A stretch of DNA of 64,000 nucleotides from an uncultured virus (IMG/VR IMGVR_UViG_3300027804_000002) (taxonomy: Duplodnaviria > Heunggongvirae > Uroviricota > Caudoviricetes): IMG/VR virus record IMGVR_UViG_3300027804_000002. One strand, written 5' to 3'. The notes beneath the pieces are model-generated. The model did no database searches, was not told where the DNA came from, and saw nothing but the letters and a program-made list of their open reading frames with translations. Both the position numbers and the translations under genes were made by a program. Of this stretch, positions 3 to 55,530 are shown piece after piece; positions within the stretch are counted from its first letter, which is position 1, and each line of letters opens with the position of its first letter.

Positions 3-434
3 TTGCGTTTTGTTGTGTATGTGGTGCGTAAAATGACCGCATGGCATCATGGCAAAGTGCCTGTTGAGGACATATTGGCGATGGGTAACAAAGCCCTACT
101 GATCGCAGCCAAACGATGGCAACCCAAAAACAATGCTAGGTTTGCCACATACGCTAGGTCTTTTATTGAAAAAGGGGTGCGTAGGGACTTAGACAATACG
201 GCTAACCTCATTCGATTACCGATAAACATTATGGAACAAATAAAAAAACTTAACTACAACAAACGAAACTTGACCCAAATATTAGGGCGAGAACCTAAAA
301 TATCTGAGCTGGCGACAATTATGGGGGTGTCTGAGAATAAAATACACCAACTGCAAGGTCACATCAACAAAGAACCTATTTCTTTAAATAATCTTAAACA
401 AGAAAAATATGCAGAGGAAAGCACCGATGATTGA
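3..434 (+). CDS. Sigma-70 family RNA polymerase sigma factor (5' truncated by window edge)
   Basis: Region 2-3-like segment 'EDILAMGNKALLIAAKRW...RFATYARSFIEKGVRRDLDNTANLIRLP...LGREPKISELA' resembles RpoD/RpoS regions 2.1-3. The ORF ends soon after 'PISLN', so region 4 is absent. Confidence 0.85.
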   Translation: MRFVVYVVRKMTAWHHGKVPVEDILAMGNKALLIAAKRWQPKNNARFATYARSFIEKGVRRDLDNTANLIRLPINIMEQIKKLNYNKRNLTQILGREPKISELATIMGVSENKIHQLQGHINKEPISLNNLKQEKYAEESTDD

Positions 435-1443: not shown

Positions 1444-3765
1444 ATGAAAATTATGAACACTAAACCACAAACCCTACCCGTACAATTCACCAACATCCCC
1501 ATGGAGTTAAAACGCATCCCCCGTTGGGTGCTATGGAGATATGTAGAAATAGGTGACGAGACTACCAAACGCTGGTCTAAAATACCCACACAGGCAAATG
1601 GACAGTCCGCATCGTCAACCAACCCTGACACTTGGGCAGACTTCCTATCTGTCCAACATGCCTACGAAGACAACCCCAACCGATTTGATGGAGTGGGCTT
1701 TGTGTTCTCAGATCACGACAACCTAGTCGGTATCGATTTGGATGACTGCTACGACCACACACAGAGGGTTTTCACAGATGCTGCACTGCAGCAAATTGCA
1801 GATAAGGTCGATGGCTATATGGAAGTCTCCCCATCTGGCACAGGGGTCAAGATATTCACCAGAGCCGACATGCACTCAGCCCATGTAGACCACGACAAAG
1901 GATTGGAGTGCTACCCCCGTGGACGCTATTTTACGGTCACAGGACACGAGATCAGTGGCAAGGTGCCACCCACCCCTCAAGACCTAACCGATATCGTCCC
2001 TGAGCGCGAAATAAGGCGTACAGGGGACTCGTTTGCGGACTACACACCCCCTGTCGAAGGATATGACATCCACAAGGTCGAAACTGAGATCTTAGCCAAA
2101 CTAGACCCATCGTCAGGCTACACAGACTGGCTGTCTGTTGGATTTGCGCTACACCACCAATTCAACGGCGATATGGAAGCCTTGGAGTTGTGGGATAGAT
2201 GGTCGTATGGGGATGGCAGTGTGCCTAACTACACACCCAACGCATGTGACAAGAAGTGGACAACCTTTAAAGGATCAGGTGCAACCCTACGAAGCCTTAT
2301 ATTTAAAATCAACCAAATGGAGCGGGCAGAAGCCTTAGCATCGGGCGAGATCATTCTCGACCAAGGTGCTATGAACCATGCCCGTACCTTTCTCGAAAAT
2401 CAGTATGTCACAGAGGAAGGCTACCGCCTAGTCCATTATTCGGATGACTTTTATGTGCATGCAAGAACGCACTACGAGATCATGGAAGAGGCAACCATTC
2501 GGTCAGACTTATACAAACTGCTGGACAAATGCAAAAAGCCAGGGAAGAAAGGTGAGTTAGTGCCATTCAACCCATCGCCAGCATCGGTGTCAGCGTGCAT
2601 GGATGCGATCAAGTCCATCGTGCATTTACCCAACCACGCAAACACCCGACCACCGATTTGGTTAGATGCCTATCGTTTAAACAAACCCGAAGCATCCAAA
2701 CTTATCAGTTTGGAGAACGGACTGTTTCACCTCGAAGATCGTGTGTTGATCCCGCACTCATTGGGTTTCTTTACACAGAACTCGTTGCCGTTTGCGTATG
2801 ATCCATCGGCTAAGTGTCCGATATGGGATAACTTTTTAAAGTCTGTATGGACAACCGACCCGCAGTCGATAGAAGCCTTGCAAGAAATGTTTGGTTACAT
2901 CCTCAGTGGTGACACCCGCCAGCAGAAGTTTTTTAACATCATCGGCCCCCGCCGTTCAGGTAAGGGAACAATCAATAAAGTGTTGGTGTCCCTCTTAGGA
3001 CAACACAACACAGTGGCGCCCGAACTAGGAGAACTATGTGATACTTTCGGCTTGCAACCTTGGCTCGGCAAACTGCTGGCTTCTTTTACTGATGCACGCG
3101 CTCCTGAACGTAATCGTTCTGCTGTTGTTAGCCAGCTTCTGCGTATTGTCGGTGGTGATACTATTACGGTTAATAGAAAAAATAAGGAGTCGTGGAACGG
3201 ATACCTCCCCACCAGAATCGTAATCTATTCCAACGAGACCTTGCAATTAACCGAGAACTCAAACGCACTCACAGGGCGAATGATTGTATTGAAGATGACC
3301 AAATCCTTTTACAACCAAGAGGACACTGATCTATCCCACAAGTTATCAAGCGAACTGTCAGGCATTTTTAATTGGGCGATGGAAGGCTTGCAACGCAGAA
3401 TAGATCGTGGCGGTCACTTCATACAACCTGAGAACGGCAAGGATTTAATCGAAGTGATGGCTGAGGCTGGCAACCCAATCGGCGCATTTGCTGAGGAAGT
3501 GCTAACATTCGACCCATCATCGTCAGTGCCAAAGGATCATGTGTTTGCTTGTTTCAAACATTGGGCAACCAAGAAGAACCTGCCATTTGGTACAGAGATG
3601 TCGTTTAAACGCAGATTCTTAGCGGCGACTCAAGAGCATGCAGTCACAGTAACAAAGGCGATGGTAGGCGGTCAGCGCAAACATGTGTACGATGGTATCA
3701 AGTTAAGTGCCAAGGCACAGAAGTATGTTGACCAAAACGTAATTGAAGACGAAGGAGTGTTCTGA
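1444..3765 (+). CDS. Primase-polymerase / PriCT-2 / D5-like SF3 helicase
   Basis: N-terminal 'GIDLDDC...EVSPSGTG' primpol motifs; 'YTDWLSVGFALH...WDRWS' PriCT-2; Walker A 'GPRRSGKGT'. Confidence 0.9.
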   Translation: MKIMNTKPQTLPVQFTNIPMELKRIPRWVLWRYVEIGDETTKRWSKIPTQANGQSASSTNPDTWADFLSVQHAYEDNPNRFDGVGFVFSDHDNLVGIDLDDCYDHTQRVFTDAALQQIADKVDGYMEVSPSGTGVKIFTRADMHSAHVDHDKGLECYPRGRYFTVTGHEISGKVPPTPQDLTDIVPEREIRRTGDSFADYTPPVEGYDIHKVETEILAKLDPSSGYTDWLSVGFALHHQFNGDMEALELWDRWSYGDGSVPNYTPNACDKKWTTFKGSGATLRSLIFKINQMERAEALASGEIILDQGAMNHARTFLENQYVTEEGYRLVHYSDDFYVHARTHYEIMEEATIRSDLYKLLDKCKKPGKKGELVPFNPSPASVSACMDAIKSIVHLPNHANTRPPIWLDAYRLNKPEASKLISLENGLFHLEDRVLIPHSLGFFTQNSLPFAYDPSAKCPIWDNFLKSVWTTDPQSIEALQEMFGYILSGDTRQQKFFNIIGPRRSGKGTINKVLVSLLGQHNTVAPELGELCDTFGLQPWLGKLLASFTDARAPERNRSAVVSQLLRIVGGDTITVNRKNKESWNGYLPTRIVIYSNETLQLTENSNALTGRMIVLKMTKSFYNQEDTDLSHKLSSELSGIFNWAMEGLQRRIDRGGHFIQPENGKDLIEVMAEAGNPIGAFAEEVLTFDPSSSVPKDHVFACFKHWATKKNLPFGTEMSFKRRFLAATQEHAVTVTKAMVGGQRKHVYDGIKLSAKAQKYVDQNVIEDEGVF

Positions 3766-4130
3766 TGATCGCTGGAGTGGGTGTTGATATTGTCAAGGTA
3801 AACAGGTTTAAAAACCTACGAGTGCCGTTAAACATTTTGGGTTTGCATGAACAACAAGAATACGAGCGCAGAGGTAAACCAGCAGACTACCTAGCCACTC
3901 GATTCGCCGCTAAGGAAGCGTTTCTAAAAGCACTTGGGTCTGGCATAAGTCCGATTGCTAACATGGATCTTGTGCAGTTGTTAAATGACGACAACGGGCG
4001 CCCGTATTTTGCGCTCAATGGCTGGGTGTATGACTTTGTAAAGAAAAACAAATATTACCCGCATGTAAGCGTAAGTGACGAAGAGGATGTGGTGGCGGTG
4101 TTTGTAACCATTGAGAAACGCAGACGATGA
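3765..4130 (+). CDS. acpS: Holo-ACP synthase (AcpS-type 4'-phosphopantetheinyl transferase)
   Basis: 'GVGVDIV', 'LATRFAAKEAFLKALGSG', 'NGRP', 'VSVSDE' motifs; 121 aa. Confidence 0.92.
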   Translation: MIAGVGVDIVKVNRFKNLRVPLNILGLHEQQEYERRGKPADYLATRFAAKEAFLKALGSGISPIANMDLVQLLNDDNGRPYFALNGWVYDFVKKNKYYPHVSVSDEEDVVAVFVTIEKRRR

Positions 4131-8061: not shown

Positions 8062-8357
8062 CAGACCAAGAACTGCTACTAATTATGAACGGCATCGTAA
8101 AGGTTGCAAGACCTGTGAGTGCCGATGAATTAAAGATAGAAAGCCTCGACACATTAATTAAAGACACTGGTCTTGATAGCCTGGACTTCTTGATGGTCGG
8201 TGTTTATTTGTCCGACATCTATGGTGTGTCTGAGGAAGACGTCAAACTAATGAAACTCACGGAAGAAAGCACAATCCGCGATGTATTTGAGTTTATGTTT
8301 AAACACTCCACACAAACACCAAAGACCGTAGAAGAGGCACTTGAAAACGTAAAATGA
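8058..8357 (+). CDS. Acyl carrier protein
   Basis: 99 aa and acidic; 'DTGLDSLDFLMVGVYLSDIYGV' phosphopantetheine site (Ser codon 8178-8180); 'TIRDV' helix IV motif. Confidence 0.85.
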   Translation: MTDQELLLIMNGIVKVARPVSADELKIESLDTLIKDTGLDSLDFLMVGVYLSDIYGVSEEDVKLMKLTEESTIRDVFEFMFKHSTQTPKTVEEALENVK

Positions 8358-9463
8358 TCTACTTAACAGACTACCGCACAGTGGCGGCAACCCATACTGA
8401 TTTATTCGATGAAATGTCTTATCCGCAAAGAGCATTCTGGTTTCCAGAATTGTTTGCCAAAAAAGATAGCGGATTAGTTTACGTGCCGCACAAGCTGGCT
8501 GACCGTGTGTTAGATGTGGAACTACTTAGATCACTTAGAGAGCGCAAAGGCAAGACTGCTTTTATCTTGGCATCTGGTAACGCACACTTTGCCGGTATCA
8601 ACCCATACGCTATTAAGAAAAGCCGTTTGACCTATGACTACAAACTACTACCACTCACACTGACGCAGGTGTACGCTGGTCGTATCGGGCAGATGTGCGG
8701 GGCGGACGATTTGATCACAACCGATGCCAGCGCTTGTGCATCCAGCCTCAAAGTTATGTCGGACGTGTGCCAACTGATGACATACCAAGGGTTTGATCGG
8801 GTGTGCGTGTTGGGCGTAGAGGACACTATCAACGACAAGGTATTGCATTTCTTTGGCGAATCGGGCGCGTGTTTGACATACGATAAAGAACAGCAAGGAA
8901 TTAAACCATCTGCGTTTGACCACCATAACGGCGGGTTTTACATCGGTCAGGGCGCAGTGTTTGCCGTCTTTGAGAATGAGAATGTATTAGTTAATAAACC
9001 AAAAGCAAAACTAATAAGCGCTGGTGTGGCTAGTGAACAAAGCACCAACGCAATCGGGCAACGTGAAGATGGGCAAGGTTTTGTAAAAGCCGCCGCCCTA
9101 GCATTACGATCAGGTAACATAAGCACAGAGGAGATACAAATTGTTAAAACGCATGGTACAGGGACTAAGTCAAATAACATGTCTGAGAAAGCGGCTTTAC
9201 AGGCGTTGTTTCATACGCCGTTTATTGCGACATCCTTTAAACAAATAATAGGACATACAATGGGCGCGTCAGGTTTGTTGGAGACCTGTTTGCTATTAGA
9301 TAGTTTGCAATCAGGTATAGTGCCAGCCATTCCAAACCGTACCCAAAAAGATGATGTTTATTTGTCTGAACCCATGATGATTAAACGCAAGCCAAAGATT
9401 TTAAGCCTAGCCGCAGGTATGGGGAACATTTACGCAGCCGCAATTTTTGACACACGAGTATGA
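8354..9463 (+). CDS. Beta-ketoacyl-ACP synthase (FabB/FabF-like ketosynthase)
   Basis: Cys-His-His triad intact: 'ASACASS', 'KTHGTGT', 'SFKQIIGHTMGASG'; 'PSAFD...GFYIGQGA'. Confidence 0.92.
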   Translation: MIYLTDYRTVAATHTDLFDEMSYPQRAFWFPELFAKKDSGLVYVPHKLADRVLDVELLRSLRERKGKTAFILASGNAHFAGINPYAIKKSRLTYDYKLLPLTLTQVYAGRIGQMCGADDLITTDASACASSLKVMSDVCQLMTYQGFDRVCVLGVEDTINDKVLHFFGESGACLTYDKEQQGIKPSAFDHHNGGFYIGQGAVFAVFENENVLVNKPKAKLISAGVASEQSTNAIGQREDGQGFVKAAALALRSGNISTEEIQIVKTHGTGTKSNNMSEKAALQALFHTPFIATSFKQIIGHTMGASGLLETCLLLDSLQSGIVPAIPNRTQKDDVYLSEPMMIKRKPKILSLAAGMGNIYAAAIFDTRV

Positions 9464-11349: not shown

Positions 11350-11607
11350 ATGAATCCATTTGAATTACGCTATGACTTACTCAAGACCTCCAAGGAGTTC
11401 TTAACCGAGCAGTACAACGCCCAGCTAAAAGCCTGGGAAGTAGCTGACGAAGCTGGTAAAAAACTGCTTGAGCAAGCGCCCCAGTTCCCCACAATGCACG
11501 AAATCATTGACAACGCAATTGAGATGAACAAGTTTATCAGCACCACAATTGAGGCTCAATTGGTTGACGGCGTCAAGCGCTTTAACCGTATCACTGCAGT
11601 ATTTTAG
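11350..11607 (+). CDS. Conserved phage hypothetical protein
   Basis: 'NPFELRYDLLKTSKEFL...FPT...II..A.EMNKFIS'; AGGAG RBS. Confidence 0.65.
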   Translation: MNPFELRYDLLKTSKEFLTEQYNAQLKAWEVADEAGKKLLEQAPQFPTMHEIIDNAIEMNKFISTTIEAQLVDGVKRFNRITAVF

Positions 11608-11612
11608 TATCG

Positions 11613-11658
11613 GTTGCGACTTTTTTGAACCAATTTACAAAAAAGTCGCGACTTTTTT
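11613..11658 (+). terminator. Long hairpin with U-tract, overlapping a 20-bp palindrome
   Basis: GTTGCGACTTTTTTG (11613-27) pairs with CAAAAAAGTCGCGAC (11638-52), followed by T6. Confidence 0.6.
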
Positions 11659-11663
11659 ACAAT

Positions 11664-11744
11664 GGGGTAGGTATAGTTTCGACGAGGGGCCAAGGCTGAT
11701 ATGCAACCCAGCGGACCACGGGGCAGTACCGTGCTACTCCACCA
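11664..11744 (+). ncRNA. Minimal tmRNA-like RNA (tRNA-like domain only, alanine identity)
   Basis: Acceptor stem GGGGTAG/CTACTCC with G3:U wobble and encoded ACCA; tmRNA-type stemless D-loop ...TTTCGAC; GGAC followed by T-arm CACGG-GGCAGTA-CCGTG. Confidence 0.8.
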
Positions 11745-11749
11745 AACAC

Positions 11750-11860
11750 ATGACAACAAAAGACATTTTTTATTTAACAACCGTGCCAGTAGCTATGTTA
11801 GTAACTTATAAGTTACTATTGGAGCTGTGGTGTATAACTTATGGGTTAATTTATGGATGA
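11750..11860 (+). CDS. Small hydrophobic peptide (36 aa)
   Basis: ATG just after the RNA 3' end; hydrophobic sequence. Confidence 0.35.
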   Translation: MTTKDIFYLTTVPVAMLVTYKLLLELWCITYGLIYG

Positions 11861-12035
11861 TTTTAAGTGCCTTCCCAAAATGAAATCTGGCGGCCCAGTC
11901 GGCCTTTATGCCAACATCCACGCCAAACGAGAGCGCATCAAAGCCGGCTCCGGTGAGAAGATGCGTAAACCCGGTGCCAAAGGCGCACCAACCAAGGACG
12001 CATTTGTTCAGTCTGCAAAGACAGCTAAAAAATAA
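11853..12035 (+). CDS. Small basic phage protein with a GG-terminated leader
   Basis: 'MDDFKCLPKMKSGG' followed by 'GLYANIHAKRERIKAGSGEKMRKPG', a recurring small phage protein. Confidence 0.7.
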   Translation: MDDFKCLPKMKSGGPVGLYANIHAKRERIKAGSGEKMRKPGAKGAPTKDAFVQSAKTAKK

Positions 12036-12424
12036 TGGCAACCAAAAAACACCCCCAATCTAAGTATGACCCAGACATGTGCGATCGTATGATCGAACTA
12101 GGTAAGCTGGGCGCATCGCAAAAAATGATATGGTCCGAATTGGGCATATCAAAAGGAACGGCAGAAGCCTGGAAAAAGAAGTATCCAGAGTTTGCCGAAG
12201 CCTTAGATCTTTCCCTAGTCCATGCCCAAGCCTTTTGGGAACGGGAACTCCTAGCCAATGTGGACAATAAGAACTATAATAGCCGTCTAGCCGAGATTGC
12301 CCTCAGAGGCCAGTTCCAGCAAGACTATCGCGAAACCCGCGATACCAAAGTAGATCTTAAAGCGGAAGTTGTAGTCGATTTTAACAAAGAGATAGCTAAC
12401 CTAATTTCCGCCCTAAAGTCATAA
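12035..12424 (+). CDS. Terminase small subunit-like protein
   Basis: 'SKYDPDMCDRMIELG..G.S...LGISKGTAEAWKKKYPEFAEAL' HTH pattern typical of TerS; 129 aa. Confidence 0.7.
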   Translation: MATKKHPQSKYDPDMCDRMIELGKLGASQKMIWSELGISKGTAEAWKKKYPEFAEALDLSLVHAQAFWERELLANVDNKNYNSRLAEIALRGQFQQDYRETRDTKVDLKAEVVVDFNKEIANLISALKS

Positions 12425-12508: not shown

Positions 12509-13642
12509 ATGACTGCACACGCTATACTATCCGCTTCATCATCTAAAAGATGGATTTCTTGCACGCCCAGTGCTAGACTTGAAGCAACACTCCCAGAACC
12601 TAAAAAACCATCAGGGTCATTTGATTTTTCAGCGGAAGGCACTCTTGCCCATTCCCTGGCAGAAATCAAATTGCGCTTGCACTACACACAAATCACACAG
12701 GAGCAATATGAACAAGATCTGCAAGAAATACAAAGAAACAAATATTTCACCGACGAACTCGCTGATTACGTGGATAATTACGTACTCTACGTGCGTAGCC
12801 AAATCGGGGAGTCGGACACGCCGCTTTTTGAGCAACGTGTGGACTTCTCTGACTGGGTTCCTGATGGCTTTGGTACAGCCGATGTGGTTATACTTTCTCA
12901 GCACTCCATTCGGGTCATCGACCTCAAGTTTGGAAAAGGCATCCCAGTCTCAGCGCAAGACAACACACAGCTCAGACTCTACGCCCTCGGTGCGTACTCC
13001 AAGTTCAAAGACGAATACCCGGACATCAAAGAAGTCAGCTACACAATCCACCAACCGCGCCTCGAAAGCATCTCAACAGACGGCACAACCATCACGAAAC
13101 TCGTCGACTGGGCGCAGTACTTCGTCAAACCAAAAGCCAAAAAAGCATGGAGTGGCTCAGGCGACTTCCTCCCAGGCGAATGGTGCCAGTTCTGCAAAGC
13201 CAAAGCGCAATGCCGCGCCCGCTCGGACTTCAACAACGAGCTCGCAAAGCTCGAGTTCAGGGCGCCCCCGCTCCTCAGCCAAGAAGAAGTAAGCGACGTT
13301 TTAGTAAAAGCTCAGAACCTACGCACTTGGGTTAACGATGTAGAAGAGTTTGCTTTGGAAAGAGCGGTTACAGAAAATGTAATACCAAAGGGTTTTGAAT
13401 TAGGGACAACAATTACGCATCGTAAAATTGCTGATTCTCAACTAGCCGCTGAGATTTTAAAAGAAAAGGGTGTACCAGAAGAACAAATATGGGAGCCACG
13501 TAAAATAAAATCAATTGCCTCATTGGAAAAACTAGGCGCTAAAGGACAGGTTATGGCGTGGCTTGGCGGTTTGGTTCAACGCCCTGAAGGAGCTCCTAAA
13601 TTAGTCAGAGCAAAAGAAACTGCTAAAGAGGACTTCCAATGA
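12509..13642 (+). CDS. DUF2800 Cas4-like PD-(D/E)XK exonuclease
   Basis: 'HAILSASSSKRWISCTPS', 'GFGTADVVI', 'IDLKFGKG', 'NTQLRLYALG', 'WCQFCKAKAQC'. Confidence 0.9.
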   Translation: MTAHAILSASSSKRWISCTPSARLEATLPEPKKPSGSFDFSAEGTLAHSLAEIKLRLHYTQITQEQYEQDLQEIQRNKYFTDELADYVDNYVLYVRSQIGESDTPLFEQRVDFSDWVPDGFGTADVVILSQHSIRVIDLKFGKGIPVSAQDNTQLRLYALGAYSKFKDEYPDIKEVSYTIHQPRLESISTDGTTITKLVDWAQYFVKPKAKKAWSGSGDFLPGEWCQFCKAKAQCRARSDFNNELAKLEFRAPPLLSQEEVSDVLVKAQNLRTWVNDVEEFALERAVTENVIPKGFELGTTITHRKIADSQLAAEILKEKGVPEEQIWEPRKIKSIASLEKLGAKGQVMAWLGGLVQRPEGAPKLVRAKETAKEDFQ

Positions 13643-14054: not shown

Positions 14055-14123
14055 TTTTGTAGTAAAGGGTAGACAGATTGGCCCCTATTGAAGCCCAGTC
14101 TCTAACGTTAAAAAGGTAATTTT

Positions 14124-14642
14124 ATGCCAGCAAAATCAGTAAAAACTAAATTTGTAACAGGTAAAGTGCGTTTTTCTTATGCGCACGTTTTTCAACCAGC
14201 AGAAACACCCAATGGCACAATGAAATACTCTGTGTCAATCCTTATCCCTAAAACAGATAAAGATACTATTGCTCGCTTTAATAAGGCTTTTGAAGATACC
14301 AAAACAGCCAATGCTTCTGTATGGGGCGGCACAGTTCCTAAGATGCTCAAAGGCGGTTTGCGTGATGGCGATGCAGAAAAAGATGACGCAACATATGCTG
14401 GTCATTATTTTATCAACGCTAACTCTAATGAGAAACCTGGTGTTGTAGATGCAGATCTCAACCCAATCTTGGATCCATCTGAGTTTTATAGTGGCTGCTA
14501 TGGTCGTGCTTCAATCACGTTGTATGCTTACGATACAAGCGGTTCCAAAGGTATTGCAGCAGGTTTAAACAACGTTCAAAAGTTAGAGGACGGCAATAAG
14601 TTAGGCGGTGCTACATCCGCTGCAGCAGATTTCGCAGTATAA
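14124..14642 (+). CDS. DUF2815 ssDNA-binding protein
   Basis: 'VRFSYAHVF', 'KYSVSILIPK', 'LRDGD', 'FYSGCYGRAS', 'GLNNVQKLEDG'. Confidence 0.9.
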   Translation: MPAKSVKTKFVTGKVRFSYAHVFQPAETPNGTMKYSVSILIPKTDKDTIARFNKAFEDTKTANASVWGGTVPKMLKGGLRDGDAEKDDATYAGHYFINANSNEKPGVVDADLNPILDPSEFYSGCYGRASITLYAYDTSGSKGIAAGLNNVQKLEDGNKLGGATSAAADFAV

Positions 14643-26986: not shown

Positions 26987-29118
26987 GGACGCTCGTCGCC
27001 GTACTCTGCAGTAATAAGCAGGCGGCCCATTTCAAAGTTACCGTCCAATACGTTGGACTCAAACTTGAGGCGTACTTCGCGGTGCTCTACGCGCAGGTCA
27101 ATCTTACCGGTGTCTGGGTCAAAGTAAAATGGCCCCGAGGTCTCTGTATCTCCGCGGGCAAATTTACGGCCCAATATGGTCATAGCCATTGTGCCGGACT
27201 GTACAAAGTCTGGCTCAATACGTCTTAAGTGCATACGCCGGTTAACGCCAGTGGCGCTGTCTTGTGATGGTATCCCACCAACCCAGCTAATGTCGCAAGT
27301 CGTGATGCTAGATGTAATGGCAAACTCTTGGTTAAACGTAATAGCGTTTGTGCCAAACTCATGCTGCCATAGTGGATATCCACCTTCAATATAATATATG
27401 TAATCGCCGGCTACTTGAATTGGGTCAAAGTTTACATCTACAGTAATTAATGTCACACCCTCTGGGTTTGTTGCTGTAATTGCAGAGGTAAACATAAAAA
27501 CACTTGTTACAATTTTATAAACAACAGGGCTTCCCGTATTTGTCAGCGAGATATAGTCACCCGCGCCAAAAGTAGCCGTCACGTCACCATTAATATATAC
27601 CTGGTTATTATTCGGTGGCGATTCACTGGGTGGCTCGTCAATAACTTCAAACGGTACGCTAAATGTATTAATGTCTTCCCATCCAGCCCAGATTGGTGTT
27701 GGGAACACCTCGGTGGTATATCCACACGATCTACGTGATCCAGGCGCGCTTCCGGCGTCGTACCAGATTTTGTCTTTGACGTTGTATACAATTGCGTCGG
27801 TGCATTCTGTGGCATCGCCGCGGGGATAAAAAAACCAGATCTCATTATACCTAGGTACTTTGGTTGCCCATACCTTTTGGCGCTGTACAAAGTTGAGGTT
27901 ATCAAATAGCCAGTTTACGTTTTTATCATTTGGCAGTACAGAGACCGCACCATTGTATAGGTAGAAACGGTCGACACCCATCCAGTAAAATATACCATCC
28001 ATCTCAACAAAGCACGAGGATGATATGGTAGAGATCTGGCTAGAAATAATATCATAGCGCCAGTAAAGCGGAGTTGTGCCGGTAAACGAAACACGGATCA
28101 AACTATCAGTTGCCCAGAACAATCCAGACGGTGAGTTAGTACCGCCGCGTACTGGTATGCCTTTAACAATCTTAGACGAGGCCATGTTGACCTGGTTAGA
28201 CGTTGGGCCGTTCCAGTCGGTAATTGTTTGCTGGTTGTATAATGTTAGCGTTGTATTGGTGTCGACGTTGTTGTTGGCAATAAAGCCATCCGACCCATAC
28301 ACAAACGTGTAGGGATACAACACGCAAACACCACCATCTACTACTATTGGTCGATAGGTTGGATTCTGACCGCCAGTATCGGCTAATCCGTAAAAGTTCC
28401 ATTCGTTTGATGAGTCTGGCAATAACCCACCAGTTAATACTTGGGTCTGGATGGCGTTGTCAATGTTTGCTAAGTTTTGACCCGGATGCGCCAACACTTG
28501 TAACGATCCACCCGCAGGCGAATACTGTAAGTCAAACTGCCACAACAGATTTGGATCTGGTGTAAATGTAACATCGTACAACGCTACCGTTGTGGGCGTT
28601 CCAGCAATACTGGAGGCCGTTACAGTTACCGTTGTATTTGGTGACGAATATACCGCACTAACTACTGTAGTTGCGGTAGTAATGTCGTCGTCAAATATAA
28701 CCGTCATTGCGGCAGGAAACGCCGCGGTTACGTCGCCAGCAATTACAAAGGTGCTGGTTGTGTTTGATACCAATGTAAAAGGTGCATAGCCAGGTAAAAT
28801 ATTTACAGTAAGCGGACCACTGCCAACGCCAAACGTAGTGCCTGTTGTAAATGCTTCTAAGCCATACTGGTTACCAACAAAAATGTAGTTAACTCCGTTA
28901 AAAGAGTTAGATATCATACCTCTTGGTATGCCGGTAAACGTCGCAAACAGTTCACGGTAGCCACCCATTTTTCTAGGCGTGCCACGTTGAAAACGGCACC
29001 ATTCTCCGTCACTGAACTCACGTGACTCAAATATTGTGCCGTCTCGTTTTATACCTGGCTGAACACCAAGCGTGTAGACCAGATTATACTGTTCTGGTAA
29101 GCTGTTTTCTCCGGCCAT
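26983..29118 (-). CDS. Tail hub / head-closure (P22 gp10-like) protein
   Basis: 711 aa, beta-rich; 'FYWMGVDRFYLYNG', 'YNEIWFFYP', 'LRRIEPDF'; position in the tail module. Confidence 0.65.
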   Translation of the reverse strand: MAGENSLPEQYNLVYTLGVQPGIKRDGTIFESREFSDGEWCRFQRGTPRKMGGYRELFATFTGIPRGMISNSFNGVNYIFVGNQYGLEAFTTGTTFGVGSGPLTVNILPGYAPFTLVSNTTSTFVIAGDVTAAFPAAMTVIFDDDITTATTVVSAVYSSPNTTVTVTASSIAGTPTTVALYDVTFTPDPNLLWQFDLQYSPAGGSLQVLAHPGQNLANIDNAIQTQVLTGGLLPDSSNEWNFYGLADTGGQNPTYRPIVVDGGVCVLYPYTFVYGSDGFIANNNVDTNTTLTLYNQQTITDWNGPTSNQVNMASSKIVKGIPVRGGTNSPSGLFWATDSLIRVSFTGTTPLYWRYDIISSQISTISSSCFVEMDGIFYWMGVDRFYLYNGAVSVLPNDKNVNWLFDNLNFVQRQKVWATKVPRYNEIWFFYPRGDATECTDAIVYNVKDKIWYDAGSAPGSRRSCGYTTEVFPTPIWAGWEDINTFSVPFEVIDEPPSESPPNNNQVYINGDVTATFGAGDYISLTNTGSPVVYKIVTSVFMFTSAITATNPEGVTLITVDVNFDPIQVAGDYIYYIEGGYPLWQHEFGTNAITFNQEFAITSSITTCDISWVGGIPSQDSATGVNRRMHLRRIEPDFVQSGTMAMTILGRKFARGDTETSGPFYFDPDTGKIDLRVEHREVRLKFESNVLDGNFEMGRLLITAEYGDERP

Positions 29119-53072: not shown

Positions 53073-53102
53073 ACTAATGCAATAAATGGGGGTATTCCGC
53101 CC
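53073..53102 (-). promoter_or_regulatory. Late-type promoter GGGCG-N15-TTGCATTAGT
   Basis: Exact consensus match; ATG 6 nt downstream. Confidence 0.75.
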
Positions 53103-54547
53103 TACTGGGCGTACGGATTGACAAACTTCTTGGAGTAGTCCTCATCGGCATAACTATAATCCCTCGCTGGTAATGGGTCAAGTTGCAACCATCCTGAGTC
53201 ACGCAACACACGCAACGCCTGGGATAGTGAGTCCACATAGTCATCGTGCCCGCCTGCCTCTGGGAACGAACACACCTGACGCAAGAACCGTTTTGCCCAG
53301 CTTGCGTATTCTCCTTTTTGTTTGTTGTCTTCTGGTATCCAAACTTTACCTTTGGCTACCAGGGGTGCAACAATGTTAAGACGCTGCACCTTGTCCGCTC
53401 TGCCAGGATTATACCCCCTGACCGGGACACCGGCACCTTGGAGTTCTTGGATTAGGCTGATACCCGCCGACTTGTCTTCCATTAGGATCAGGTCCGCCTT
53501 TCGGCCCTTGCCAAAGTCGTTGTCCGCACCGTATACCACTTCCTTGAAGTCGTCAATTACTTTTCTACGCAGCTCCGGGTATGACAAGTGCTCATCCCAA
53601 GAGTCTAGCAATATGACCGCCGTGCCGGCGTCTAGTTGTTCAAACACGCCCCAGATGGTGCAGGCGGTTGGGTCGTTCATAGTCTTCTCAGAAGTCGCCG
53701 GATCATACGACGCAATAACATACTCCAGCGTCGGAGTGGGTTTGTTCGCCGGCCACAGGCGAAACTGTTTGCGCTTGATGATACCCGACTGTTCCGGGTC
53801 AAGGATCTCACCATAGATCTCTTGTCGGCCAATATCAGTGCCGTCGTAAGTCTCAAGCTGTTTGAAGAACGTTTCTGATAGGTTGGCTCGGTTGTCATAG
53901 GACGAGGCGTTTGACACATACACGTCGCCTCCAATTTTTCCTTCGTTAAGATCGACAATTAATTCTTTTGGCTTGGGAGTGGTGGTAATAATCTGCTGCA
54001 CTCGGGGGATGCGTGGGTCCCGTAGACGTAAGGTAAACTGTACGCCATCGTAGGCATCGTCGATGTAATCAAACGCACACAGTTCGTCGAACCAGGCGCC
54101 GTGATACTGTTTACCACGATACCGTTCTGGCTCGGAAGCTGGGATTCCTTGGATAAGAGACCCGTTTGTAAGGGTAATTTCAAAAAGGGACTTGTTGTAG
54201 TCTCGTATAAGTGACGGGGGAATGATATTGAGAAGTCCAGAGTCCCCCTCGAAACAAGTTGCACGTATATCGTTTGATGTTGGGGCGGTAACGAGCCAGC
54301 GTGTATTGTCAAAACGCCAAGCGCGAATGCCAATCCAATGGCTAGCAGTGTGCGTCTTCCCCGATCCTCGGCCAGCCAACATAAGAAACGTGTCATATTC
54401 GCCATCTTCTGGCTCCCTCTGGTGCGCTAAGGCTTGTAAGTGCCACCGCACCTGCCAAATGGCAGCCTCAAGCTGCTGCTTAGGCCAGTGTTTGTTGTTT
54501 TGTGCGAACTTTTTTAGTATAAGTTCTTGTTTGTCTGTTAATGGCAT
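53102..54547 (-). CDS. Terminase large subunit
   Basis: Walker A 'AGRGSGKT', Walker B 'AWFDE', 'TTTP', nuclease motifs 'SYDPA' and 'HDDYVDS'. Confidence 0.93.
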   Translation of the reverse strand: MPLTDKQELILKKFAQNNKHWPKQQLEAAIWQVRWHLQALAHQREPEDGEYDTFLMLAGRGSGKTHTASHWIGIRAWRFDNTRWLVTAPTSNDIRATCFEGDSGLLNIIPPSLIRDYNKSLFEITLTNGSLIQGIPASEPERYRGKQYHGAWFDELCAFDYIDDAYDGVQFTLRLRDPRIPRVQQIITTTPKPKELIVDLNEGKIGGDVYVSNASSYDNRANLSETFFKQLETYDGTDIGRQEIYGEILDPEQSGIIKRKQFRLWPANKPTPTLEYVIASYDPATSEKTMNDPTACTIWGVFEQLDAGTAVILLDSWDEHLSYPELRRKVIDDFKEVVYGADNDFGKGRKADLILMEDKSAGISLIQELQGAGVPVRGYNPGRADKVQRLNIVAPLVAKGKVWIPEDNKQKGEYASWAKRFLRQVCSFPEAGGHDDYVDSLSQALRVLRDSGWLQLDPLPARDYSYADEDYSKKFVNPYAQ

Positions 54548-55530
54548 GAAATAAACCCTTCTCCTACGAGAAAGCTGTTGTCCTGTCCGGTTGTCTCAAT
54601 ATGCACGCACATCTGCGCGGCAATTGGTGTTATTTTGGTGATGTACCGTCTAGCCTGGTGTACCTTTATCGGTGGCGAAACCTGATTTTCAACCAACTTT
54701 GTGCGGCTTTTAAAACTAATCGTGTAATACCTGTAAGTGTCATCAAACTGTACCTTAGTTCTATGGCCAAGTGATTCGACAAGACCCTGAACCTGTAACA
54801 TAAGCCCGTAATTAATCGACGTAAAACGAAATTGATCTTTTGCTTTTGAATATTGTCTTGATTTTGCATACAGTATACCACACAACAGTTCGGTTCGTTG
54901 TTCTGCCGAGGCTAATAGGTAGTTTTCGGGTATTTTTGCGGGTATGTTTGGCGCTAATTGTGATTCAATACTGGGACTTACCACAAATTCACGCTCGCCG
55001 GTGTTAATTTTCTTACCAATTACCAGTTTGTAGCCCGCGTCTTTGAATTTTTGCTCCACAAACTTAAACGTGCCCCGGGGTGCTGCCATACTTCGGTTAG
55101 CTCGTCGGTTAAAAAACCAAAATCCAAAGATAAACGGCTCTACCGGCAGGTCTTGCCTGGGAAGAGATAAGGGTTTTGTGGTTGGGACTGAGTAGATTAA
55201 CCTGTTTGCATGGTTTTTTAAGTTGGTATCTACCAACTTATCCACGGATACAAACTTTAATGGGCGCCTAAATTTCTTCTTGCCCTGGTACTCACAGATT
55301 CTTTGGCGGTATTTTGGCGTTTCTACCAAAAATCCTAGCTTATCGTCCCCAGCGGCAGTAAGGTAGTCGTTAAACAACACCTCATAGCAGGTTTGGGCGC
55401 GGTACTCTTGGATTAATTTAACCTGGACAATTTGTCCATCTTTGTTAAAAATATAATCGCCAACTCGCAGTTTGTTTGCTGGCTTCCAATAGTCAAGGGT
55501 TAGTACTTTTTGGTTTGCTAGTATTGCCAT
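54538..55530 (-). CDS. Free-standing intein-derived protein (Hint + degenerate LAGLIDADG)
   Basis: Block A-like 'AILANQKVLT..W...LRVGDYIFNKDG', 'ASAEQRTELLCG', block F/G-like 'VHIET...FLVGEGFISCH*'. Confidence 0.8.
   Translation of the reverse strand: MAILANQKVLTLDYWKPANKLRVGDYIFNKDGQIVQVKLIQEYRAQTCYEVLFNDYLTAAGDDKLGFLVETPKYRQRICEYQGKKKFRRPLKFVSVDKLVDTNLKNHANRLIYSVPTTKPLSLPRQDLPVEPFIFGFWFFNRRANRSMAAPRGTFKFVEQKFKDAGYKLVIGKKINTGEREFVVSPSIESQLAPNIPAKIPENYLLASAEQRTELLCGILYAKSRQYSKAKDQFRFTSINYGLMLQVQGLVESLGHRTKVQFDDTYRYYTISFKSRTKLVENQVSPPIKVHQARRYITKITPIAAQMCVHIETTGQDNSFLVGEGFISCH

Follow-up and report, generated by a model that had tools for sequence, protein, structure and literature searches.

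The 64,000-nt stretch of DNA analyzed here as a whole (hereafter, the window) represents an uncultured virus of the class Caudoviricetes (IMG/VR record IMGVR_UViG_3300027804_000002). Judging by its sequence, positions 11664-11744 of its plus strand are a phage gene for a transfer-messenger RNA (tmRNA) retaining only the tRNA-like domain (TLD), i.e., a tmRNA lacking the coding sequence (CDS-less). The 81-nt element, hereafter called mini-tmRNA, is a member of a large and diverse phage family common in viral contigs, in which letters of the D and T loops covary as in the elbow of tRNA. By its anatomy and a shared covariance model, it appears to be an RNA of the same kind as that of mycobacteriophage DS6A, a kind already in print, and the window copy can be regarded as a divergent, well-conserved further member of this group.

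Anatomy of the Mini-tmRNA

The features of the element and of its leader are summarized in Table 1. The initial annotation of the window, made from the letters alone, described an 81-nt element with this acceptor stem, a stemless D loop, GGAC, a T arm, and CCA, and every one of these parts was recovered where it had been placed. The acceptor strands GGGGTAG (11664-11670) and CTACTCC (11734-11740) form 7 bp followed by ACCA at 11741-11744. The set of TLD characters present in the window comprises the acceptor with G3:U70, A73, CCA, the stemless D loop, UUCGAC, the P2 helix, GGAC, and the T arm. The stemless D loop, UUCGAC, and GGAC, previously interpreted as tmRNA hallmarks, agree with the Rfam tmRNA consensus RF00023 (GGGG..UUCGAC ... 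GGAC-T arm-..CUCCACCA), which the window matches.

Table 1. Features of the mini-tmRNA gene and its leader in the window.
Feature	Position	Strand	Basis
Whole TLD-only mini-tmRNA gene, 81 nt	11664..11744	+	Sequence; covariance models R1 and R2
Acceptor 5' strand GGGGTAG, including G3 of G3:U70	11664..11670	+	Sequence
Stemless D region, GTATAGT then TTCGAC (TTCGAC = 11678-11683)	11671..11683	+	Sequence, fold, covariation
AG in the D region, partner of T-loop letters 2-3	11675-11676	+	D/T-loop tertiary covariation
Short P2 helix region	11684..11712	+	Minimum free energy fold; P2 pairs 1-5 covary in the family
GGAC ahead of the T arm	11713..11716	+	Sequence, RF00023 consensus; motif forced in both search patterns
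T arm CACGG / GGCAGTA / CCGTG, perfect 5-bp stem	11717..11733	+	Sequence
Acceptor 3' strand CTACTCC (U70 = 11736), discriminator A, encoded CCA	11734..11744	+	Sequence
Conserved intergenic leader, 56 nt	11608..11663	+	Sequence and variant comparison
GCGACTTTTTT, first copy in the leader	11616-11626	+	Sequence
AAAAAAGTCGC, complement of GCGACTTTTTT, in the leader	11639-11649	+	Sequence
GCGACTTTTTT, second copy in the leader	11648-11658	+	Sequence
Sigma-70-like TTTACA-18-TACAAT	11634-11663	+	Promoter scan

Besides the acceptor stem and the T arm, the minimum free energy (MFE) fold includes a short helix flanked by UUCGAC and GGAC. In this helix (P2), GAGGGG (11684-11689) is paired with CCCAGC (11707-11712) with two internal A/G mismatches, and the helix is capped by an internal loop plus a 2-bp hairpin (GC at 11695-11696 with GC at 11703-11704). 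The 5' half aligns to the consensus of the tmRNA_permuted family. In the window copy, the short P2 takes the position occupied in tmRNA by pseudoknot PK1, the tag frame, and PK2-4. The spacing between TTCGAC and GGAC, estimated earlier as about 30 nt, is 29 nt, which is too short for any tag reading frame; none of the components of an mRNA-like domain (resume codon, tag frame, stop codon, pseudoknots) were found in the 29 nt between the two halves, and no tag was reported by the tRNA/tmRNA finder ARAGORN.

The sequence directly 3' of the CCA is represented by two unrelated variants among close relatives; hence, conservation ends at the CCA and there is no mRNA-like part downstream. A permuted gene with an mRNA-like domain located downstream was considered and rejected for the same reason, the sequence past the CCA being swapped in close relatives, and also because the tail of the tmRNA_permuted alignment turned out to be unstructured filler.

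A Large Phage Family with a Covarying Structure

Viral contigs were searched with two patterns. In the first, GGGG, TTCGAC, GGAC, and CTCCACCA were fixed and the stems were free; it returned at least 120 loci. With three more from G001, a near-identical record, the set used here amounts to 123 rows, which reduce to 91 unique sequences 66-97 nt long. In the second, the acceptor was free and a TTCGANT T loop was fixed; it also returned at least 120 loci, with many contigs common to the first scan. Since TTCGAC, GGAC, and ACCA were fixed in both patterns, their constancy in these sets is no evidence, and A73 and CCA, likewise forced, are simply seen across the family.

Among the matches listed for the first pattern, the T stem, which was not forced, has 5/5 pairs in 90 of the 91 unique copies, and the acceptor has 7/7 pairs in 89 of them, three of these pairs being unforced. 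The only copy with a T stem of 1/5 (L038) was removed from the tallies as a chance match. In the resulting 90 copies, again among the matches listed, acceptor pairs 5-7 and T-stem pairs 1-4 are realized by two to six pair types each; P2 pairs 1-5 are mostly paired and represented by five to nine standard pair types each. Alignment A2 was limited to the 53 of 90 copies possessing a 7-nt D region, as the 5' ends were staggered by MAFFT in the full alignment A1. In A2, 96.6% of the cells are paired under the three-helix structure, whereas shuffled alignments give 71.2% and slid partners 50-63%. Changes on both sides are seen in 13 of the 18 pairs, and the covariation score of 0.692 (vs. 0.179) was reached by 0 of 500 shuffles. 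One family member, L055 (1501-1597, minus strand), was excluded from A2; it carries a 45-nt insert with repeated GTCAC(A/C) units in place of the usual 18-nt hairpin.

The second scan is particularly relevant to the alanine identity pair, since here the acceptor was not forced. Among the 97 unique sequences listed, 90 possess a 7/7 acceptor stem formed via a 7-mer situated 3-14 nt upstream of TTCGAC, and seven are without such a stem. All 90 copies with the acceptor display G1:C72, G2:C71, and G3:U70, and pair 4 is represented by G:C (81 copies), C:G (7), and G:U (2).

Apart from the helices, covariation is observed in the elbow, i.e., between the D region and the T loop. The D-region letter -3 covaries with T-loop letter 2 (G/U in 46 copies, A/G in 28; mutual information 0.60), and letter -2 covaries with T-loop letter 3 (G/C in 68 copies, A/U in 10; mutual information 0.35). 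Neighboring positions do not exceed 0.26, and neither value was reached in 5000 shuffles, bearing in mind that the sequences are interrelated and the shuffle counts are not probabilities. Each of the main combinations occurs with at least 10 different acceptor stems; the combination of the window is AG / GC. The covarying letters occupy the places of the tRNA tertiary pairs 18:55 and 19:56. Covariation across phage homologs, put forward in the initial annotation as a check, was therefore found in A2, in both search sets, and in the elbow.

Two members of the family merit a separate comment. At L012 (1243-1585, plus strand) and L054 (1501-1843, minus strand), ARAGORN calls a 343-nt tmRNA with a 30-residue tag, the 3' end of which coincides with that of an 85-nt mini-type match. 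This call represents either a genuine phage tmRNA of full length that contains a second 5' half internally, or an over-call by ARAGORN.

Recognition by tRNA and tmRNA Models

Two covariance models were derived from the family: R1 from alignment A2, with the window inside the seed, and R2 from 47 copies, with the window and the five nearest members of its subfamily left out. R1 gives one match in the window (11664-11744, 64.2 bits). R2, run on both strands of the 64 kb, also gives a single match, at exactly 11664-11744 (55.0 bits, E 3.2e-10); as this model was built without the window or its subfamily, the element is more than a chance arrangement. The sister copy in the related locus L310 scores 70.7 bits with R2, and true tRNA-Ala genes score 26.8 bits with R1 and 21.4 bits with R2.

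The general-purpose models were less sensitive. In a permissive Rfam search of 11560-11860, the 3' half of the element resembled alpha_tmRNA (20.2 bits, E 2.5e-4; gathering score 50) and the 5' half resembled tmRNA_permuted (13.5 bits; gathering score 47); no mt-tmRNA match was listed in this search, where overlapping matches of the same clan are hidden. At the same time, the L310 copy could be aligned with RF00023 across model positions 1-374, of which 312 are missing and replaced by 19 nt; the score was 53.3 bits in one run and 44.8 at the same place in another, with a gathering score of 47. Of 12 further family loci, RF00023 found seven, six at 52-73 bits and one at 46.2; none of the five with a GGC-type T loop were found, and six of the seven members with an ordinary T loop were at or above the gathering score. 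Hence, the failure of the window copy to reach the Rfam tmRNA thresholds is due to its GGCAGUA T loop, which is of the alphaproteobacterial type, and not to its being a different entity. The occurrence of such loops in alphaproteobacterial tmRNAs, mentioned in the initial annotation, is corroborated by the alpha_tmRNA consensus (GGCgGUA) and by two alphaproteobacterial tmRNA genes (see below).

Relation to Known TLD-Only and Full-Length tmRNAs

According to PMC4131195 (Hudson, Lau and Williams 2014), mycobacteriophage DS6A, named there from its entry in the tmRNA Website, encodes a form which is “TLD only”. As stated there and in PMC11915505, both citing Mao et al. 2009, endogenous tmRNA is inhibited in E. 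coli by this form or “a similar molecule”; in the former paper, the inhibition is described as strong, obtained with a DS6A-similar molecule whether chargeable or not, and perhaps exerted via SmpB titration.

In the DS6A genome (JN698994), R1 gives one strong match at 28478-28560 (+), 83 nt long (51.6 bits, E 1.2e-9), and R2 gives the same segment at 51.6 bits. This gene (our locus L124) is unannotated in the GenBank record and is located between gp33 and the DNA polymerase III gene gp34. Like the window element, the DS6A RNA is phage-borne, about 80 nt long, and encoded by an unannotated intergenic gene; it shares G3:U70, and a short hairpin lacking a tag frame links its two TLD halves. Both are recognized by the same covariance models (51.6 bits for DS6A vs. 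55.0 with R2 and 64.2 with R1 for the window). The differences include the motifs (GUCGAC, GCAC, ACUA with no encoded CCA, and a UUCGAUU T loop in DS6A vs. UUCGAC, GGAC, ACCA, and GGCAGUA in the window), the presence of a tyrosine integrase in DS6A, whereas none was seen in the window, and the hosts, which are unrelated: the host of DS6A is an actinobacterium, whereas that of the window phage is possibly alphaproteobacterial. The initial view of the element as a phage-borne TLD without the mRNA-like domain is thus supported by its anatomy, by the covariation in the family, and by the covariance model shared with the DS6A RNA.

With bacterial tmRNA (RF00023 and the permuted two-piece RF01849 and RF04321), the window element has in common the acceptor with G3:U70, the stemless D loop ending with UUCGAC, the start of P2, GGAC, the T arm, and ACCA; the GGCAGUA T loop is the same as in the two alphaproteobacterial tmRNA genes. 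Unlike bacterial tmRNA, it lacks PK1-PK4, the resume codon, the tag frame, and the stop codon, approximately 312 model positions being replaced by about 20-29 nt (as seen on the sister copy in L310). In contrast to the permuted alphaproteobacterial tmRNA, its gene order is not permuted. The CDS-less tmRNAs from jakobid mitochondria and Mallomonadaceae plastids, as described in PMC11915505, also have a TLD of ~65-80 nt without a tag frame, yet they are organelle genes co-occurring with an imported SmpB and thought to serve the organelle's own rescue, whereas the window RNA is phage-borne. In the literature consulted, no description of the phage family beyond DS6A was found, nor were its breadth, the invariant G3:U70, the elbow covariation, or the exchange of phage mini-tmRNAs with tRNA genes.

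The Same Slot in Related Phages

The comparison set comprised 80 loci with a relative of the exonuclease encoded downstream of the element (65-100% identity), some of which lack the upstream flank. R1 finds the mini-tmRNA in nine of them, seven near-identical to the window plus L310 and L311. The latter two (66% exonuclease identity) have an 81-nt homologue with compensating changes in the acceptor and T stem and a UGCGAUU T loop. Two further R1 matches, at 26.8 bits, are true tRNA-Ala(UGC) genes in the same slot (L257 and L261). Overall, ARAGORN reports tRNA-Thr, tRNA-Ala, tRNA-Pro, or tRNA-His in 17 of the 80 loci, upstream of the exonuclease in the loci checked. In L310, the mini-tmRNA starts one base past the stop codon of a 44-codon open reading frame (ORF), and in 6 of 60 family loci a same-strand tRNA gene lies 2-12 nt away from it; ARAGORN recognizes no mini-tmRNA as such in these 60 loci. 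The occupation of tRNA-gene slots, the adjoining tRNA genes, and the abutment on the stop codon indicate that the RNA is likely handled like a tRNA, i.e., made and trimmed in the same way. The 44-codon ORF itself (L310, 2565-2699, plus strand) starts in a signal-peptide-like manner and ends with a tail rich in lysine and alanine.

A full-length tmRNA in related phages, from which the element could be a recent deletion, had been named at the outset as an observation that would speak against a dedicated mini-gene. ARAGORN found none in the 80 loci, several of which are without the upstream flank, so the absence is unproven; Rfam at gathering thresholds, applied to 20 of them, gave no tmRNA except the mini-tmRNA of L310. 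The origin by recent deletion from the full tmRNA of sister phages was discarded on these grounds, with the same caveat of missing flanks.

The initial annotation also offered as an alternative a tRNA-Ala/tmRNA hybrid with a GCUG/CAGC stem around a UGC anticodon. Like tRNA-Ala, the window RNA has G3:U70, A73, CCA, and an acceptor/T-arm minihelix, but the D stem and the anticodon arm of tRNA-Ala are both missing from it. The alternative had to be abandoned: the loop would be 10 nt, A replaces G35 of the stem, uncompensated, in 7 of 8 close variants, and the L310 homologue has neither the GCUG/CAGC stem nor UGC. Furthermore, ARAGORN and the Rfam tRNA model are negative, and even true tRNA-Ala genes reach only 21-27 bits with the family models.

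A wider version of this idea, i.e., that the element is functionless, being a decaying remnant or an attP-type fragment of host ssrA or else an odd tRNA-Ala, is regarded as extremely improbable. It is true that ssrA is a frequent integration site of phages, which then carry its 3' end (PMC9004378), and the loop of the window copy contains UGC. A remnant is, however, contradicted by covariation: both halves of the TLD are present and covary, and the RNA varies less than the coding sequence beside it; in addition, there is no integrase in the 63 ORFs scanned and no full-length tmRNA in the relatives. An odd tRNA-Ala would be expected neither to lack the D stem and the 7-nt anticodon loop nor to escape ARAGORN. 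The specific case of an attP site or an ssrA 3' fragment was rejected on account of the presence of both halves and the lack of an integrase in the Pfam scan of 63 ORFs and in the PHROG scans.

Genomic Context and Conservation of the Leader

The window is a tailed-phage genome. Its plus strand encodes a primase, an SNF2-type helicase, a ribonucleotide reductase, a family A DNA polymerase, a DUF2800/PD-(D/E)XK exonuclease (12509-13642), and a Gp2.5/Enc34-type single-stranded DNA-binding protein (14124-14642), whereas the minus strand encodes a terminase, portal, capsid, tail fibres, holin, and lysins. The phage is apparently lytic. No integrase was found in the PHROG scans of the window, and the Pfam scan of its 63 ORFs revealed no integrase, SmpB, or other translation factor. 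Two ORFs outside this scanned set, 11549-11860 (+) and 11604-11780 (-), pass through the element. The mini-tmRNA (+) sits between the small ORFs 11350-11607 and 11853-12035.

Among eight close variants, the RNA varies in 2 of 81 columns, at position 23 (an A/G mismatch in P2) and position 35 (loop), and the leader preceding it in 3 of 56 columns vs. 48 of 244 in the upstream coding sequence. The leader, with its complementary repeats (Table 1), may serve as a terminator or a promoter. The ORF at the very start of the window (3-434, plus strand) contains a Sigma-70 region 3 domain, and the phage could accordingly use specific promoters missed by a sigma-70 scan.

On the other side of the element (11801-11816 and 11820-11845, plus strand), the palindrome GTAACTTATAAGTTAC is situated ~60 nt past the CCA; the relatives with the other downstream sequence have the hairpin AACCTACCGGTTAGGT there. 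Both hairpins precede a conserved ...GAGCTnTGGTGyATAACTTA... ahead of the next ORF, so that the hairpin and the conserved stretch may represent a terminator plus an extended -10 promoter.

Other features of the window can be mentioned in passing. A DUF2815 RNA (RF03084, 67.9 bits) is located at 14066-14126 (+), directly upstream of the gene of the single-stranded DNA-binding protein, and 12 of 20 related loci contain it at that position too. The replication module includes unusual phage auxiliary genes, an ACPS (4'-phosphopantetheinyl transferase) ORF (3765-4130, plus strand) and a beta-ketoacyl synthase ORF (8354-9463, plus strand). Two adjacent overlapping ORFs on the minus strand, 53102-54547 and 54538-55530, both match terminase large-subunit families; they may correspond to a split or frameshifted terminase or to a terminase and a second ATPase-like protein.

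Host and Expression

No match to the window was found by megablast and blastn among 50,697 phage records, and the exonuclease is less than 46% identical to that of any cultured phage. Among 185,579 species genomes, none contains the exact T arm; a looser T-loop pattern is present in three species genomes, two of which are alphaproteobacterial metagenome-assembled genomes with true permuted tmRNA genes (219 and 225 bits). A holin domain of the type found in gene transfer agents (GTA-type) is encoded in the window. Considering the alpha_tmRNA-type GGCAGUA T loop, the two alphaproteobacterial genes, and the GTA-type holin domain, an alphaproteobacterial host might be guessed, albeit weakly.

Four freshwater metatranscriptome runs were compared with the window. 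Contigs from X1 and X2 (at least 99% identity) span 11596-12354 and 11596-12041, respectively, including the element; X3 contains a relative's variant up to 11745, and in X5 the element is not covered.

These contigs, spanning the mini-tmRNA together with downstream genes, would be in line with a role as a tRNA-like processing or stability signal, recruiting RNase P and 3' trimming on a polycistronic early transcript with no part in translation. The occupation of the slot of the relatives' tRNA genes and the abutment on the stop codon in L310 and on tRNA genes elsewhere would also fit such a role. However, RNase P needs only the acceptor/T minihelix, which leaves the invariant G3:U70 unexplained, as well as the tmRNA-type D loop, the P2 stub aligning to tmRNA models, and the covariation of the D and T loops. 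An element of this type is therefore considered improbable.

Proposed Role

In bacteria, ribosome rescue and protein tagging proceed mainly through trans-translation. By analogy with the DS6A-type RNA, it is on balance probable that the mini-tmRNA interferes with host trans-translation in the broad sense, competing for SmpB and alanyl-tRNA synthetase (AlaRS). In such a scenario, the RNA would be cut like a tRNA from an early or middle transcript of the replication module, with RNase P acting at G1 and the 3' end formed at the encoded CCA. The folded molecule would be an L-shaped minihelix of acceptor and T arm, bearing a tmRNA-type D loop and the P2 stub, presumably to be charged with alanine by the host AlaRS via G3:U70 and bound by the host SmpB. 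The RNA could thereby rival the host tmRNA in binding SmpB, and probably also EF-Tu and the vacant A site of stalled ribosomes. As a result, proteins from stalled ribosomes would escape the degradation tag during infection. Both functional ideas of the initial annotation, SmpB sequestration and tag-less rescue, are among those offered for DS6A in PMC4131195 and PMC11915505.

Several observations weigh against this reading. ARAGORN called neither a tRNA nor a tmRNA in the 64-kb window, and Rfam at gathering thresholds gave no tmRNA family and no tRNA, the DUF2815 RNA at 14066-14126 being its sole match; accordingly, the check with these tools proposed in the initial annotation turned out well in that no canonical tRNA was called, and badly in that the window copy stays below all Rfam tmRNA gathering scores and is missed by ARAGORN. 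The MFE is not lower than that of shuffled sequences (z +0.37), so stability is not a distinctive trait, and the motifs fixed in both search patterns contribute nothing by their constancy. The presence of the mini-tmRNA in only 9 of the 80 exonuclease-related loci, some of them lacking the upstream flank, implies that it is dispensable in this lineage. The sole sigma-70-like promoter ends 1 nt before G1, and transcription from it would start inside the acceptor stem. The metatranscriptome contigs covering the element continue into downstream genes; the ends, strand, and level of the RNA are not readable from them, and DNA in the libraries is possible. Finally, the inhibition described in PMC4131195 was independent of chargeability, and a pure SmpB sponge would leave the invariant G3:U70 unexplained.

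The last point deserves attention. The invariance of G3:U70 argues that charging matters for the element, suggesting selection for it; this fits entry into the ribosome, by tag-less rescue or by A-site blocking, better than pure sequestration of SmpB. The invariant pair, together with the encoded CCA, the retained elbow, and the placement among tRNA genes, would suit a need for charging and ribosome entry. It is thus possible, although only as a tentative option, that the RNA is a working alanine-charged “tag-less tmRNA” which enters with SmpB the ribosomes stalled on broken mRNAs and ends translation without a tag. The broken mRNAs could arise from phage nucleases or from host abortive-infection RNases, and the ribosome pool and the truncated products of the phage would be kept away from host quality control.

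In a stricter form, which is rather unlikely, the mini-tmRNA would be a rescuer and not an inhibitor: the alanyl-RNA with SmpB would take over the nascent chain, and the ribosome would later be freed by drop-off, Pth, or ArfB-type release, so that the ribosomes would be recycled for the phage and the products would remain unmarked for proteolysis. Selection for charging is suggested here by the unforced G3:U70 (90 of 90 copies among the matches listed) and the encoded CCA, as a mere SmpB sponge would need no charging judging by PMC4131195; the CDS-less tmRNAs of jakobid mitochondria are also thought, according to PMC11915505, to help with incomplete mRNAs. Nevertheless, there is no known release route without a resume or stop codon, and the published DS6A-type test gives inhibition and not rescue.

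Roles outside trans-translation have been considered as well, e.g., a decoy (bait for a host nuclease targeting tRNA or tmRNA), a cofactor (RNA partner of a counter-defence protein), or a dedicated alanine donor (Ala-RNA for a non-ribosomal transferase). A link to counter-defence has been drawn for phage tRNA clusters and t(m)RNA fragments, as exemplified by AcrIIIA1 with t(m)RNA fragments (PMC11662646), and the mini-tmRNA travels with tRNA genes in some phages. Still, no conserved protein partner was seen adjacent to the element, the neighbors being small ORFs and the DUF2800 exonuclease, and what is conserved coincides exactly with the tmRNA TLD, which makes such roles quite improbable.

Under the tentative option of a working tag-less tmRNA, the different T loops of the homologous copies (GGCAGUA in the window, UGCGAUU in L310) could reflect tuning to the partners of host tmRNA.

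Implications for Phage Biology

DS6A has been the single printed example of a phage RNA keeping only the tRNA-like end of tmRNA. The window adds a divergent member from an uncultured, apparently lytic phage, and the family to which it belongs suggests that phage genes of this type are common and diverse, with the alanine identity pair present without exception (90/90 among the matches listed), the elbow kept, and the slots shared with tRNA genes. These genes are easily overlooked, since they escape ARAGORN, and those with unusual T loops escape Rfam as well. If it is true that the RNA blocks or short-circuits tagging, phages would possess in it a cheap and widespread tool against a core pathway of the host, and the mini-tmRNA would represent a natural minimal ligand for SmpB and AlaRS.

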